Assembly (NCBI GenBank): GCA_038064635.1
Contig: JBBTSS010000001.1
Span: 1-62,497 of the forward strand
From: Patescibacteria group bacterium
GTDB taxonomy: Bacteria > Patescibacteriota > Minisyncoccia > Phycocordibacterales > UBA9973
DNA length: 62,497 nt
Direction of reading: 5' to 3'
Shown here: one piece after another, positions 2,501-46,774 of the stretch
How the letters are laid out: every line of letters starts with the position of its first letter
How positions within the stretch are numbered: the stretch's first letter is position 1
Program-made: the position numbers and the translations under genes
Notes under the pieces: generated by a model
Told to the model about the DNA's origin: nothing
Seen by the model: the letters and a program-made list of their open reading frames with translations, nothing else
Databases searched by the model: none

Positions 2501-3259
2501 TTATTTCCAATTGTCTATTGCATTTTTTATCTGATCCAAAGAATCAATAATAAAAAGTTTTTGATGAAATTCATGGGCACTATTTGAAGTATTCTTCATC
2601 TCATCTACATTAAATGGTACGAGTTCTACTTTACCACTAAAAGCATTATTCCTCTCACCTATCGAGGACATAAGTCCTGCACCAAATGCTTTCAATTCTC
2701 CTGTTGTTTTGTCTTTCATAAGACCAAATTCAAAAGTATACCACCAGAAATTTGATAATTGCTGTTTTTCTTCTTCAGTTTTTAATTCTTGGTAAATAAC
2801 ACCAAATTGATGAGCTATATCCATGTACTCCTTAGAGCAAAGAAACGGAAGATGCCCAAATATATCATGAAATGCTTCAGGAAAAGGTGTGTAGTCAAGG
2901 TTTTCTCTACTTCGTATCACCTTAGTTACCAAAAAAGATTTATTTTCAAAATGTTTAAACCAATCATCAGCATTGCTGTATTCTGTGTCTGTTGGAGTCA
3001 GTACCCAGCCGACTTTCTCTTGAATTACCTTCTCTAAATCATTTAACTTTGGTACAGCCCGGTCATCCATGTTTAATTCTTTTATCCCTTCTAGAAAAAG
3101 TGGGTGAGCATTTTTCTCTAATTCTCGAATGTTTCTAGAAAAAAGTAAGTTCCATACTTCATGAGCTTCATCATTGCCTTCTATCGGTACATTAAAGTAT
3201 CCTTTTGTTACTTCATCTAAATTTTTTATATTTGTATCATTTTTTATGTTGTTAGACAT
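2501..3259 (-). CDS. phhA: phenylalanine-4-hydroxylase (biopterin-dependent aromatic amino acid hydroxylase)
   Basis: Iron-ligand region HDIFGHLPFL, plus EFGL and FGAGLMSSIGE motifs. Adjacent to the pterin dehydratase gene. Confidence 0.85.
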   Translation of the reverse strand: MSNNIKNDTNIKNLDEVTKGYFNVPIEGNDEAHEVWNLLFSRNIRELEKNAHPLFLEGIKELNMDDRAVPKLNDLEKVIQEKVGWVLTPTDTEYSNADDWFKHFENKSFLVTKVIRSRENLDYTPFPEAFHDIFGHLPFLCSKEYMDIAHQFGVIYQELKTEEEKQQLSNFWWYTFEFGLMKDKTTGELKAFGAGLMSSIGERNNAFSGKVELVPFNVDEMKNTSNSAHEFHQKLFIIDSLDQIKNAIDNWK

Positions 3260-3302
3260 ATAATTATTTTTTAAAATTCTTTTAATAATTTAAATAAAAA
3301 TT

Positions 3303-3448: not shown

Positions 3449-4390
3449 CTATACTGGTAAGTTCTCTACTTCTTGCTCTTGTCGGAGGCGTATAATTTTA
3501 TAAATACTAAATACTAATAAAAATGCAGCAAACCATTGAGACATGGAAAGACTTGTATTATACAATTGCATATCGATAAATATAGCCACAAAAGGAAAAG
3601 TAAGTTCAAGTATAGTAGACACGTGCACTGGAGTAGTAGAAAGACCTTTGTAATATATGAGGAGTGCTACCATGCCCGTAGAAACGGCAATTAAAGAGAA
3701 GTATCCAAATTGTGGTAAGGTAACATCCCCAATAGACCCACCATAACCAAACAAAAGTAAAACTGGGAAAGCTAAGAGAATGGTAAATAAAAATCTATAA
3801 AAAGTACTCACATCCGAACGTACTTTTCCTAAAAGCATTTTTGAAAATGTAGTCGAAGTGCCCCAAGCAAAAGCAGCTCCTAAAGCATAGATAGCAGCGA
3901 TAATAGTACCTTGGCCTGTTTTTAAATCAACAATACCATTTTTAAATGTCACAAAAAATGCTGCAATAATTGCAAGTACTGCCCATACTATATATCTTTT
4001 GTCTATTTTTTCTTTCAGAAAAATTCTAGCTGAACTGATAGCAAATATAGGTTGAAGTTTCTGTAATAAAAATACCACTGAAAAAGAAATAAAATTAACT
4101 TTTAGAAGTGCTGTCGTAAACCACAAAGTACCTAAAACACCACTTAAAATAGAAATGAGAAGTAAAAGCATCCATTCACGTTTTGTTAAATTTGTTTTGA
4201 AAATATACTTAAAAACAAAAGGAAATAAAATAACAAGTCCAAATAAATGCTCAAAAAATATGATAGTGATAGGTGGTAGAGAATATAAATACCTACGTAT
4301 CACACCATCGACTGCCCATAAAAGTGCTGCGATGACTATAAGCAGTGGGCCTGTATAAGATTTTAGAGCTAAAGATTTATCTTCTTGCAT
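3449..4390 (-). CDS. EamA/DMT-family transporter
   Basis: About 10 predicted TM segments with the duplicated EamA-like architecture. Confidence 0.75.
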   Translation of the reverse strand: MQEDKSLALKSYTGPLLIVIAALLWAVDGVIRRYLYSLPPITIIFFEHLFGLVILFPFVFKYIFKTNLTKREWMLLLLISILSGVLGTLWFTTALLKVNFISFSVVFLLQKLQPIFAISSARIFLKEKIDKRYIVWAVLAIIAAFFVTFKNGIVDLKTGQGTIIAAIYALGAAFAWGTSTTFSKMLLGKVRSDVSTFYRFLFTILLAFPVLLLFGYGGSIGDVTLPQFGYFSLIAVSTGMVALLIYYKGLSTTPVHVSTILELTFPFVAIFIDMQLYNTSLSMSQWFAAFLLVFSIYKIIRLRQEQEVENLPV

Positions 4391-4740
4391 ATTTCTATAT
4401 CTTTTGTTATTTGAGTAATCAATTCTTTTTCTGTTTTAAAATTCTTATATTTTCTTAAAAATTTTAAAATTTCTATTTGCACATATTTACCATATGCATT
4501 TCCATTATACCCTATCAAGTGAGCTTCAATTTTTGGTAAACCTTTTTTATCTAATGGTCCGATGACTACTCCAGATTTATATTTTTTGTTTTCTAAAGTA
4601 ACTATTCCAGAATAAATACCAAAATCAGGTTTCTTTTCTAATTTCAAGAAATTTCTTCTATCTAAATTTATCGTAGGGAAACCAATTTTTTTACCATAAT
4701 TATCTCCGTGAATTACTTTTCCAGAAAGAATATAAGACAT
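4369..4740 (-). CDS. riboflavin kinase (stand-alone RibF C-terminal domain type)
   Basis: GKVIHGDNYGKKIGFPTINL and IEAHLIGYNGNAYG motifs. The ATG overlaps the aspS stop (TAATG). Confidence 0.75.
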   Translation of the reverse strand: MSYILSGKVIHGDNYGKKIGFPTINLDRRNFLKLEKKPDFGIYSGIVTLENKKYKSGVVIGPLDKKGLPKIEAHLIGYNGNAYGKYVQIEILKFLRKYKNFKTEKELITQITKDIEICKKINL

Positions 4741-6089
4741 TAGAAACCATCTTCATTTAATCTGTCATCAATTCTGTTCATGTCTCTAGGGAACATACAA
4801 GCTTCCCGAATGTTTTTAAGGTTAAGCAACTGCATGGTTATTCTCTCAGCTCCAAAAGCAAATCCTCCTTCAGGTGGTACTCCATATTTAAAAGCTTCTA
4901 AGAACATTTTTACTTTATCTGGGTTCATGTTCCAGATCTTGACGTGTTCCATCAGTTGCTTATGATCATTTATTCTTCTACCACCAGAGAGCCACTCTAC
5001 GCCCCGACAGATAAGATCCATACCTTCGTTATATTCTGGTTCTGCTGGGTTAGGATATACGTAAAAAGGTTTCTGTCGAGTTGGATATCCGTAAATAAAT
5101 ACAAAATCAGAACCTGTTTCTTCTTTTATTATTTCACAAATTTCTCTTTCGTCTTGAGGATTGGTATCTTTGTCTCCACGTACATCACGACCAAATTTTT
5201 CAAATATTTTCTGTTGAACTTCACGAAGTGAAAGAGTTGGAGTCTTATCAATCATTGTAGGTAATATTACTCCTAAAGTTTTTAAATGTTCAGAATTTTT
5301 TGTTTCAACCTGTTTTAAGATATGTCTTACTGTTTCTTCTGCCATGTCTCGCACATCTGTCCATGAATCAATGAAACCCATTTCAGCGTCTAGTGACACA
5401 ACCTCAGTGAGATGTCTTGTAGTAGAAGAAGGCTCAGCTCGAAAAACTTTGTTTACAGAAAAACATCTCTCAAATGCTGACATCACTATTTGCTTGTAAA
5501 GCTGAGGTGATTGTGAAAGAAATGCTTTTTTATCAAAATAATTTAATTGAAAAACCTCAGCACCACCTTCTGCTGTGGCTGGAACGATACTTGGTGCTTG
5601 AAATTCAAAAAACATATTCTGCTTCATGAATTCTCGAAATGAATCTATTACTGTTTCTTGAACTTTGAAAACTGCTTGTACTTTTTGTTGTCTAAAAACT
5701 AAAGCTCTATTATCAAGTTCTGTTGTAAGTTCTAAATTATATCCATCCAAAGACATATCAAAAGGTAAAGCTGCAGCTTCAGAAAGCACTTCGATATTTA
5801 AAATCTCCAACTCAATATCTCCATTTAGAACTCCTGTCTTTATGTTTTTTTCTGGACGCTTATTTACCAAACCTGTAATTTTTAAAACCCACTCAAGTCG
5901 TACGTCTTTTGCTTGAGCAATAGCTTCTTCATGATTAGGTAATGTTATACATTGAACTATCCCAGTCATGTCACGCATATCAAAAAAAACCATTTTACCT
6001 TGGTCGCGTCGAACATTTACCCATCCAGCAATAATAACCTCCTCCCCAACACGAGAACTTAAATCTTTTATAAAAATTCTATTTTTCAT
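4740..6089 (-). CDS. aspS: aspartate--tRNA ligase, archaeal/short type
   Basis: Class II motifs FRAEPSSTTRHLTE and GGFAFGAERITM. The length is about 449 aa. Confidence 0.9.
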   Translation of the reverse strand: MKNRIFIKDLSSRVGEEVIIAGWVNVRRDQGKMVFFDMRDMTGIVQCITLPNHEEAIAQAKDVRLEWVLKITGLVNKRPEKNIKTGVLNGDIELEILNIEVLSEAAALPFDMSLDGYNLELTTELDNRALVFRQQKVQAVFKVQETVIDSFREFMKQNMFFEFQAPSIVPATAEGGAEVFQLNYFDKKAFLSQSPQLYKQIVMSAFERCFSVNKVFRAEPSSTTRHLTEVVSLDAEMGFIDSWTDVRDMAEETVRHILKQVETKNSEHLKTLGVILPTMIDKTPTLSLREVQQKIFEKFGRDVRGDKDTNPQDEREICEIIKEETGSDFVFIYGYPTRQKPFYVYPNPAEPEYNEGMDLICRGVEWLSGGRRINDHKQLMEHVKIWNMNPDKVKMFLEAFKYGVPPEGGFAFGAERITMQLLNLKNIREACMFPRDMNRIDDRLNEDGF

Positions 6090-45468: not shown

Positions 45469-45786
45469 TTTTATTCTTTTTTGAAAGAACTCCAGTCTCT
45501 TATAAAACTTCGTGTTTTATACTCTGGCTTTTAGCTGTAAATTTTTACAAATAAAAGTCAGGACACAAAACAAAAGCGCTCTCATCCGAGAGCGCTTTTT
45601 ATTGATAGATGTATTTTACTTTATATCTAGCAACAAAAAAGAACACTCTCTGTGGAGCGCTTCTTTCCCTTATTTGCTACTAATACAAAATTCTTATTCA
45701 TAATATTATTTATATCATATATCCATTCACCTAAATAGTCAAAAAAATTGGCCACCTTTTACGATGACCAACTTACTAAGAGATTA

Positions 45787-46182
45787 TTATTTTTTCTTAA
45801 GGTACAAACGGTAGTCTGGATCAAGCCAGACATCATTAACGTAAAATATTACTTGATAGAAATTGGAGTCCCCAAATAAAGTATTCAATGCATGCAGTAA
45901 TTTATTTTTTTTATGGGAATTATGTGTCCCTTTTTTTATTACTTGTGTTGCATTTACATTTTTTTTAGGTCTACAAACAACTTCGTAATTTGAAAATTCT
46001 TTAGGTTTTAGATAATTAAATCTAGCACTAATTTGATAGGGATTCATGTTCCCAACAAGAACATGCCATGCCTCGTGTTTCCTTGGCGACACGTGAGAGA
46101 TATTTGCAGGATTAGTTTTATGACCACCAAGCGACGTCGGGCATCTATGGTGTTCTTCGGTGATTATCTTAGACTTCATCAT
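45787..46182 (-). CDS. HNH endonuclease-domain protein
   Basis: EEHHRCPTSLGGHKTNPANISHVSPRKHEAWHVLVGN fits the HH..P.S.GG...N......H.AWH..(F/V)GN HNH pattern. Confidence 0.7.
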   Translation of the reverse strand: MMKSKIITEEHHRCPTSLGGHKTNPANISHVSPRKHEAWHVLVGNMNPYQISARFNYLKPKEFSNYEVVCRPKKNVNATQVIKKGTHNSHKKNKLLHALNTLFGDSNFYQVIFYVNDVWLDPDYRLYLKKK

Positions 46183-46239: not shown

Positions 46240-46276
46240 GCAAAATAGCTCAAAATTTGATTTTGAGCTATTTTGA
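46240..46276 (-). terminator. intrinsic terminator after tRNA-Glu
   Basis: AAAATAGCTCAAAAT pairs with ATTTTGAGCTATTTT. Confidence 0.65.
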
Positions 46277-46281
46277 TCGTG

Positions 46282-46353
46282 TGACTCTACAGGGAATCGA
46301 ACCCTGATTTGATCCTTGAGAAGGATCCGTCCTAACCGTTAGACGATAGAGCC
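46282..46353 (-). tRNA. tRNA-Glu (anticodon CUC)
   Basis: Hand-folded: acceptor GGCTCTA/TAGAGTC, D arm GTCT-AACGGTTA-GGAC, anticodon stem GATCC/GGATC with loop TTCTCAA, T arm CAGGG-TTCGATT-CCCTG, discriminator A. Confidence 0.9.
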
Positions 46354-46589
46354 GTTATTTTCTTTTTTAACTCACTTTTACCTTTTGGCGTTTTATAATA
46401 TCTCTCAACCCTAAAAGCTTCATAAATATTATCATAATCTTCTTTATATATCAGTTTTAAAGGTCGACGACTTTTTGTTGACTTTACTTTACCTTTATTG
46501 TGATAACCTAGTCTCTTGTTTATATCTGAAGTGCAACCTATATAAAGGTTATTATCTATTGAACTTTGCAATACATAAACTGTATGCAT
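46332..46589 (-). CDS. GIY-YIG (URI-domain, COG2827-like) nuclease
   Basis: VYVLQSSIDNNLYIGCTSDINKRLGYHN...RRPLKLIY...EAFRVERYYK fits the GIY-YIG core. The last 7 codons and the TAG stop lie inside the tRNA-Glu gene. Confidence 0.8.
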   Translation of the reverse strand: MHTVYVLQSSIDNNLYIGCTSDINKRLGYHNKGKVKSTKSRRPLKLIYKEDYDNIYEAFRVERYYKTPKGKSELKKKITALSSNG

Positions 46590-46598
46590 ATTAATTTA

Positions 46599-46649
46599 GT
46601 CCTAACCGTTAGCCTCGCCCATAGGCTACGGCCGAGGGACGATAGAGCC
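46599..46649 (-). pseudogene. tRNA-Glu 5' fragment (positions 1-25) interrupted by a 26-nt GC-rich hairpin
   Basis: GGCTCTATCGTC [CCTCGGCCGTAGCCTATGGGCGAGGC] TAACGGTTAGGAC. Confidence 0.75.
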
Positions 46650-46657
46650 ATGAGAAA

Positions 46658-46686
46658 ATACTAACAATATATGAACTTTTTTGCAA
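46658..46686 (-). promoter_or_regulatory. candidate sigma-70 promoter in front of the tRNA-Glu fragment
   Basis: On the minus strand, TTGCAA (46681-46686), a 17-nt spacer, then TAGTAT (46658-46663). This lies 8 nt upstream of the fragment's first G. Confidence 0.45.
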
Positions 46687-46774
46687 AATAAAAAAGCTCA
46701 GGCCTATGCAAAAATGCACATTCCTGAGCGATACTGTCTAGTCCCCCCAGATTAAGACAGTGAATGAATGATTT

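Follow-up and report, generated by a model that had tools for sequence, protein, structure and literature searches.

A GIY-YIG nuclease gene and a clade-specific palindrome inside a partly duplicated tRNA gene: a candidate selfish cassette of Patescibacteria

The main finding of this work is a small cassette lodged in a transfer RNA (tRNA) gene of a Patescibacteria (candidate phyla radiation) genome with a G+C content of 34%, GenBank assembly GCA_038064635.1. It lies on the minus strand of a stretch of 62,497 nucleotides (nt) of contig JBBTSS010000001.1 (positions 1 to 62,497), called here the window, and consists of a gene for a single-domain GIY-YIG nuclease and a short imperfect palindrome, which we name H, set between a leftover 5' part of a tRNA-Glu(CUC) gene and an intact copy of the same gene. 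As shown below, this cassette design is family-wide in Patescibacteria, and the comparison of loci supports the interruption of a tRNA gene by the cassette with regeneration of an intact tRNA. We consider it probable, while well short of certain, that this is a compact selfish cassette, composed of the GIY-YIG gene and the clade's own palindrome, that colonises the tRNA-Glu(CUC) gene. The cassette appears to be mobile, and its way of moving is what we infer from the patterns described here.

On the minus strand, the locus runs from a promoter-like site through tRNA-Glu nucleotides 1-12, H, tRNA nucleotides 12-25, a 9-nt spacer and the GIY-YIG open reading frame (ORF) to the intact tRNA-Glu(CUC) (Table 1). 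An earlier interpretation of the window made from its letters (hereafter the sequence-only reading) had pointed to this arrangement, and our analyses confirmed the observation: both ARAGORN and Rfam call the intact tRNA, which stands downstream of the cassette as the regenerated target, and the two pieces of the second copy of tRNA 1-25 upstream of the ATG are 100% identical to it. The hairpin insert that splits this copy is also real, but it had been given as 26 nt in the D-loop and is a 25-nt imperfect palindrome plus one ambiguous C. It follows tRNA nucleotide 12, in the 5' strand of the D-stem, and one C is duplicated there. In a BLAST search of the 62-kb window, pieces A and B separately reach E values of 0.19 and 0.012; since both are in order, stand 9 nt before the ATG and form a pattern found in about 40 independent loci, the duplication is far beyond chance. 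The spacer between part B and the ATG is TAAATTAAT, and the AGGA within part B (46603-46600), 10 nt 5' of the ATG, may act as a tRNA-derived ribosome-binding site. At the other end, the final 22 nt of the ORF, including its TAG stop, are the start of the tRNA, and the last seven codons and the stop are read from it. The insert has about 300 nt with the GIY-YIG ORF as its only gene, and it lacks the tyrosine or serine recombinase of an integrase-type tRNA element. An assembly artefact, which the sequence-only reading had considered, is ruled out by five contigs (L081-L085) from separate assemblies of one groundwater site, which are 100% identical over a 471-nt region.

Table 1. Features of the cassette and its borders in the 62,497-nt window, in minus-strand order.
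Feature	Positions	Strand	Basis or remark
Terminator-like hairpin of the upstream gene, GCTCAGG...CCTGAGC plus T run	46696..46729	-	by eye
Promoter-like site: TTGCAA (46686-46681), 17-nt spacer, TGT-TAGTAT (-10 at 46663-46658)	46658..46686	-	sequence
Leftover tRNA-Glu fragment, part A (tRNA 1-12), GGCTCTATCGTC	46638..46649	-	12/12 identical to 46342-46353
Palindrome H, CCTCGGCCGTAGCCTATGGGCGAGG	46613..46637	-	clade-specific hairpin, G.G mismatch at stem pair 6
Leftover tRNA-Glu fragment, part B (tRNA 12-25), CTAACGGTTAGGAC	46599..46612	-	14/14 identical to 46329-46342
85-codon single-domain GIY-YIG gene (UPF0213/Slx1 branch)	46332..46589	-	ORF list, Pfam
Intact tRNA-Glu(CUC) downstream of the cassette	46282..46353	-	ARAGORN; Rfam RF00005, 61.4 bits, E 3e-12
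16-bp perfect inverted repeat directly 3' of the tRNA, likely terminator of the unit	46241..46275	-	repeat search

The promoter-like site ends 8 nt before the tRNA fragment, which is the expected place of the tRNA promoter, and carries a TGn extended -10. A TTGCAA...TGT-TATTAT site is similarly placed before the tRNA fragment of locus L220, and at the empty site L236 (see below) TTGACA...AATATA stands shortly upstream of the intact tRNA. On the far side of the promoter-like site, the hairpin and T run of the upstream gene suggest that the cassette begins its own transcription unit; a scan did not call this hairpin, owing to its long loop.

The arrangement is not restricted to the window. A protein-profile scan of one genome per species returned 80 loci, and the counts that follow refer to the 45 closest. 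In 40 of them a tRNA gene on the same strand starts between -150 and +60 nt from the ORF stop, mostly between -22 and +12 nt; the abutting tRNAs are mostly Gln(CUG/UUG) and Glu(UUC/CUC), with single cases of Phe and Asn. At least 9 nt of the first 30 nt of the cognate tRNA are found within 160 nt upstream of the ATG, again in 40/45, and H lies beside the ORF in 42/45. The upstream fragment resembles the local tRNA rather than the family consensus and has drifted from it by 1-4 nt in L001, L002, L016 and L032, so that these fragments are relics of the target gene. Even the proteins carry the trace of this association, since homologues at 60-80% identity share a C-terminal "AL/AP-SSNG" tail, which is the translation of tRNA-Glu sequence. 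On its 3' side the duplication ends anywhere between about tRNA position 13 (t13) and t49, some loci have a full-length second tRNA copy, and the mirror order tRNA-ORF-pseudo-tRNA occurs at L045 (Gln), L075 (Val) and L080 (Lys). This variable extent rules out a fixed staggered-cut target-site duplication, so that the target duplication named in the sequence-only reading is not one of fixed length. A coincidence of a decayed tandem tRNA duplication, an unrelated small ORF and an unrelated palindromic element could draw on the full-length second tRNA copies and on the insertion of GC-rich palindromes in AT-rich genomes, exemplified by yeast mitochondrial GC clusters in the accessible part of the source (PMC4478555). 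Nevertheless, the three parts occur together in about 40 independent loci, about 450 kb of flanking sequence hold H essentially nowhere but beside these genes, and the gap between the ORF and tRNA position 1 is zero to a few nt in almost all loci; we thus regard coincidence as very improbable.

Many tRNA-Gln cassettes lie directly after dnaX or ftsX, and empty and occupied sites were compared at the dnaX junction. Seven additional genomes were chosen by DnaX similarity alone, blind to their GIY-YIG content, and all seven (L227-L238) have dnaX followed, after 4-60 nt, by an intact tRNA-Gln(UUG), with neither a GIY-YIG gene nor H in the dnaX-tRNA-Gln junction sequence. The same junction is occupied by the cassette in nine GIY-YIG loci, in which the H-split fragment stands at the place of the empty-site tRNA start and the complete tRNA follows about 330 nt further; the tRNA is nearly identical between the empty L232 and the occupied L008. 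Judged by sequence comparison, the uninterrupted junctions are empty sites, and a presence/absence polymorphism thus exists at an orthologous site. The sequence-only reading had proposed a search for such empty sites in relatives and for further copies next to duplicated tRNA 5' segments; both exist, the latter in many genomes, and the finding is more general than that reading could see. Other signs, the mirror-order loci among them, also point to mobility, with target switching and repeated invasion. In the tree of the ORFs the Glu clade is nested within Gln loci and isoacceptors are interleaved. Truncated ORFs were found at L025, L072 and L056, and at L210 (2400-3800) three tandem GIY-YIG genes of different subfamilies follow one tRNA-Gln, with tRNA 3'-end fragments between them.

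Some of these sites hold further features, recorded here in their own right. Many assemblies break at the L210 locus, and in strain L213 an IS110 transposase stands in place of yceG. At the empty dnaX-tRNA-Gln site of L231 (3210-3330), the intact tRNA is followed by tRNA-like debris in which T-arm-like sequence carries repeated GACCGAGA(G/C) inserts, and a similar insert follows the third GIY-YIG gene of L210; these inserts may represent a further family of hairpins or inserts. In the Patescibacteria contig L238, some 370 nt separate the empty dnaX-tRNA-Gln site from a Cas12a (Cpf1)-like gene downstream of it (3576-5122). In L024 (3555-3790), tandem repeats of about 45 nt (CGACGAACGAAGGTGAGGAGGTACTGAGCCCAACAGGGCGTAGCAC), broken by a masked N run, come after tRNA-Gln, and a second GIY-YIG gene is found past them, at 3872.

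The second component of the cassette, palindrome H, had entered the sequence-only reading as a GC-rich hairpin that splits the fragment; it is not incidental but a conserved, clade-specific palindrome that accompanies these genes. Its consensus is CCTCGGCCGTAG...CTAYGGGCGAGG with a length of 24-65 nt, and the copy in the window has a fold energy of -14 kcal/mol as RNA (z = -2.9) and -8.2 kcal/mol as DNA (z = -3.2). It is single-copy in the window and, across about 450 kb of locus sequence, almost confined to a few hundred nt around GIY-YIG genes. In five tRNA-Glu loci the arms (12 bp, all 24 positions) are invariant, and the neighbouring ORF has a synonymous divergence (dS) of about 1. For the ORF, the ratio of nonsynonymous to synonymous divergence (dN/dS) is 0.11-0.28 at dS of 0.75-1.5, and these substitution patterns place both the ORF and H under purifying selection. 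Pair 6 of the stem is a G.G or C.C mismatch in 35 of the 35 distinct copies that fit the search pattern, a pattern that admitted G or C only and by which a Watson-Crick pair is undetectable. At pair 9, transitions left a G.T on the sense strand ten times and an A.C once, and at pair 11 the bias is reversed (A.C four times, G.T once), the copies being non-independent.

The positions of H are also informative. It usually stands after tRNA nucleotide 12, inverted copies stand after nucleotides 4-6 or 21, and it also occurs in the T-loop after C56 of full-length pseudo-tRNA copies. Thus, H takes both orientations and occupies sites of four kinds, and in each case a single C is duplicated at a G(N)TC^-like site. 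Inverted copies are dispersed over the ORF tree, nested and tandem copies exist, and a single H copy distinguishes L007 from L010, although their identity over about 1.5 kb is 99.2%. That H might be a tRNA intron was rejected, because the H-bearing full-length copies are otherwise defective (that of L022 lacks A7 and has an aberrant T-loop) and because an intact tRNA is also present in nearly all such loci with sequence available. Rfam has no family for 46599-46649 (H and leader) at E values up to 1. A metagenome scan with the 14-mer CCTCGGCCGTAGCC gave chance matches in GC-rich genomes, and among the matches listed none of 120 stretches contained the full H. Viral contigs gave no H and only four distant GIY-YIG relatives, and hence nothing that points to an origin in phages. 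At the Phe, Tyr, Asp and Asn loci, other GC-rich hairpins take the equivalent position.

Regarding the protein, the sequence-only assignment of the 85-codon ORF to the GIY-YIG fold was borne out by profile, catalytic residues and fold, which together place it in the GIY-YIG superfamily. Pfam PF01541 matches residues 1-71 of 85 (E 1.8e-14, 54.2 bits against a cut-off of 22.6); among 38 homologues, Y16, R26, H30 and E62 are invariant and Y5 nearly so. The AlphaFold2 model, with a mean confidence score (pLDDT) of 93.9, has the three-stranded sheet and helices of the fold in the order beta-beta-alpha-beta-alpha-alpha, and its Foldseek matches are the UPF0213 structure 1zg2 and Slx1 (TM-scores of 0.62-0.68), with the catalytic domain of I-TevI a weaker match. 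Sequence searches of the PDB agree (1zg2, E 9e-13; 1ywl, 1.6e-10; Slx1, 2.6e-4 to 3.4e-3), and YazA of Bacillus subtilis is 44% identical to the window protein. From these closest relatives in sequence and structure, the protein belongs to the UPF0213/Slx1 branch (COG2827). UPF0213/COG2827 (YazA, Escherichia coli YhbQ; 1zg2, 1ywl) and the Slx1 nuclease domain are thus its best matches, and our literature searches on the bacterial UPF0213 members gave no function for them, no partner hairpin and no link to tRNA. Slx1 carries additional domains and acts on branched DNA together with Slx4. No second domain or DNA-binding module was found in the window protein, with no further Pfam or NCBIfam match above threshold, and PADLOC gave weak matches only, none of them convincing for a defence system.

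More distant homologues, at 42-55% identity, lie away from tRNAs. Their ORFs are bracketed by inverted repeats of 9-23 bp with a C-rich outer 5' end and a G-rich outer 3' end, which are kept across genomes with unrelated flanks and have a conserved bulged base. Such hairpin-ORF-hairpin units, which resemble tiny insertion sequences, were found among L046-L078, for example at L059, L063, L069, L071 and L076 (about 2974-3285). In L062 (2960-3630) CCCCCCACCACTTTTT and AAAAAGTGGTGGGGGG flank the ORF, which lies in an RNase P RNA gene, inside the loop of the P3 hairpin, and an identical hairpin without an ORF occurs at 3492-3530 of the same gene; in L074 (2992-3838) the ORF lies 120 nt upstream of a transfer-messenger RNA (tmRNA) gene on the same strand, with GC-rich hairpins between the two. 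The family therefore tends toward places in or next to stable-RNA genes and toward a pairing with hairpins.

The closest known system, and by analogy the nearest functional counterpart, is Ssn with its NTS hairpins. Chenal et al. (2025, Nat Commun, PMC11893778) described Ssn as a single-domain GIY-YIG protein of about 94 amino acids (aa) whose genes are flanked by cognate hairpin repeats (NTS/SRM), a hairpin-gene-hairpin layout that they noted as insertion-sequence-like. Ssn binds the folded hairpin in single-stranded DNA and cuts upstream of it, and in Neisseria it modulates transformation instead of moving; neither tRNA nor Patescibacteria is mentioned (PMC11893778). Like Ssn, the window protein is small (85 aa) and single-domain, without a DNA-binding domain; a cognate hairpin repeat of 20-50 nt stands beside its gene, and distant Patescibacteria relatives have the hairpin-ORF-hairpin layout. 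Unlike the Ssn repeats, which number hundreds per genome, H is present in one or few copies, only in tRNA-derived DNA beside the gene, and the cassette is embedded in a tRNA gene of which a part is duplicated. The UPF0213 relatives argue for a family neighbouring, rather than identical to, Ssn (cd10448). The sequence-only reading was aware of no description of the arrangement. For the tRNA-embedded form this stands, as we found in the literature no GIY-YIG cassette in a duplicated tRNA gene and no such cassettes in Patescibacteria, but the related Ssn-hairpin system had already been described.

Considering these data, we hypothesize that the fragment, H, the ORF and the tRNA would form a single transcript from the tRNA promoter, in which case the host would be unable to silence the nuclease without losing the tRNA. 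A cut by RNase P at tRNA position 1 would free the tRNA and would leave the mRNA without its stop and the seven codons before it. By analogy with Ssn, the protein would recognise H folded in single-stranded DNA and cut nearby, and the break would stimulate recombination between the tRNA repeats, which would act as built-in homology arms. In this manner, the cassette could be copied into cassette-free tRNA genes that share the first 25 nt or so, and spread through a shared tRNA 5' part would account for its presence at Gln-CUG, Gln-UUG, Glu-UUC and Glu-CUC genes. H itself may spread into dispensable tRNA-like copies at G(N)TC^ sites.

Several points weigh against this explanation. Cleavage, transcript and movement are all steps that we infer. 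The 25 nt of the leftover fragment are also present in the intact tRNA, which would count against the explanation if the tRNA sequence were the target: a nuclease aimed at the tRNA should cut the host copy too, which favours recognition of the hairpin, and it likewise argues against a simple immunity of the occupied allele. The promoter-like site agrees with the consensus at 8 of 12 positions, and a promoter scan did not call it; the scan called a weak site within the ORF (46460..46431), no better than chance expectation. The TTGCAA-17-TAGTAT site of the sequence-only reading is present at its stated place, but it is a weak match to the consensus. The ORF copies are old (dS of about 1), and inheritance may therefore be largely vertical, with occasional gain and loss. 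The empty-site evidence covers tRNA-Gln and not the tRNA-Glu of the window, because the 178-aa gene flanking the window locus has homologues within its own cluster only; the neighbours of that gene had no Pfam or NCBIfam match. With respect to Ssn, the related motif HGTCWYN(0-2)YYVSBRHN(0-5)WNVSBRGN(0-2)RNCYNB matched neither the window nor the sequence within 300 nt of any of the 80 GIY-YIG genes, while the same expression matched the Neisseria NTS sequence used as positive control, and the nearest named relatives are UPF0213 proteins (YazA, 1zg2) and not a demonstrated Ssn.

Classical free-standing homing would explain part of the same evidence. According to this alternative, the nuclease recognises the double-stranded D-arm of the tRNA gene and cuts cassette-free alleles, repair of the double-strand break copies the cassette, and H is an insert that confers immunity by interrupting the recognition site in the leftover copy ("collaborative homing"). 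Empty and occupied alleles do exist, H is found at the same D-stem site in every dispensable tRNA copy and in some also in the T-loop, and the protein has weak matches in PHROGs and NCBIfam to GIY-YIG homing or group I intron endonucleases. There is also a precedent in phage T4, where SegB, a homologue of GIY-YIG homing endonucleases in a tRNA gene cluster, cuts DNA site-specifically (PMC2330249). Both systems have in common a GIY-YIG gene among or next to tRNA genes, presence/absence and a presumed break-induced recombination via flanking homology. SegB is larger and multi-domain and acts on double-stranded DNA, and we know of no target duplication or associated palindrome for it. In contrast, the window protein is a bare catalytic domain of 85 aa from the UPF0213/Slx1 branch, with I-TevI as a weak structural match, and it lacks the DNA-binding module of I-TevI and SegB. 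The interpretation of the sequence-only reading, a homing-type element, is only partly supported. In addition, the complete putative site is still there in the intact tRNA, which would stay cleavable, and gene conversion from one template cannot yield H in both orientations at several sites. For these reasons, we consider classical homing unlikely.

A role in the service of the host also deserves attention. The cassette could be a domesticated, stable and vertically inherited operon partner of tRNA-Gln/Glu, acting as an RNA leader or in the control of recombination or transformation, with no current mobility. The strong purifying selection on ORF and H, the old divergence and the dnaX or ftsX synteny kept across many genomes agree with it; the excess of G.T at pair 9 (10 vs 1) hints at a folded sense strand, and Ssn of Neisseria offers a parallel as a modulator of transformation (PMC11893778). 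However, pair 11 has the opposite bias (A.C 4, G.T 1), H occurs in both orientations relative to transcription, the same locus is only patchily occupied, some loci have been invaded by several copies in tandem, some ORFs are decayed, and the cassette is present at genes for several tRNA species, for RNase P RNA and for tmRNA. Domestication is, in our estimation, decidedly unlikely.

Other systems resemble the selfish cassette that we favour in single traits. In fungal mitochondria, free-standing endonuclease ORFs leave partial C-terminal duplications of atp6 or cob (PMC6279837). As in those cases, a nuclease ORF stands here between an intact gene and a leftover partial duplicate of the same gene. 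Unlike them, which concern protein genes, 3'-end duplications and organelles, the target is a bacterial tRNA, duplicated usually at its 5' end, the ORF reads into the tRNA, and the leftover copy bears a conserved palindrome. The hairpin-based single-strand systems REP/RAYT and IS200/IS605 and the integron attC sites also have imperfect palindromes, with a mismatched or extra-helical base that is conserved, beside the gene of their presumed enzyme. Their enzymes are HUH/Y1 transposases or tyrosine recombinases that work through covalent intermediates; the likeness is a palindrome next to an enzyme gene and is meant as an analogy only. To our knowledge, a GIY-YIG hydrolase is unable to rejoin DNA alone. 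A bolder possibility, which we put forward as doubtful, is that H and the bracketing hairpins of the distant homologues are mobile palindromes of a new, ultra-small class (24-40 nt), which a single-domain GIY-YIG nuclease moves by hydrolysis alone. The hairpin would be recognised in single-stranded DNA, the cut would fall at G(N)TC^, and ligation or repair by the host would insert the palindrome in either orientation with a one-nucleotide duplication, giving a two-part transposon specialised in tRNA, RNase P RNA and tmRNA genes and surviving by partial target duplication. If true, nuclease and hairpin would be a two-part bacterial transposon of an undescribed kind.

Two features close to the cassette in the window are also recorded. 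Just downstream of the tRNA (45787-46182, minus strand), an ORF of 131 aa with the HNH-like motif HHRCPTSLGGH...N...H may be a second small nuclease gene at this locus; its sole match is a weak one to a PHROGs homing endonuclease (E 0.007), with none in Pfam or NCBIfam. Further along, at 45501-45691, Rfam gave sub-threshold matches to a Phe leader (40 bits), the Bacteroides sRNA BTnc231 and FopS, all centred on one GC-rich terminator-like hairpin, AAAGCGCTCTC...GAGAGCGCTTT, and these are probably chance matches to a terminator.

The cassette suggests a role for single-domain GIY-YIG proteins of the UPF0213 type, for which no function is known, in selfish cassettes inside essential stable-RNA genes; for the recently found Ssn-type hairpin-directed nucleases, a role is known in Neisseria only. 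It would also represent a distinct manner of invading a tRNA gene, with no split host gene and no intron, in which the target is partially duplicated and the nuclease is tied to the promoter and processing of the tRNA. For annotation, it explains why Patescibacteria genomes contain tRNA gene fragments and GC-rich hairpins, and it points to one cause of assembly breaks. Finally, these loci offer natural pairs of nuclease and hairpin, with possible new single-stranded DNA specificities.

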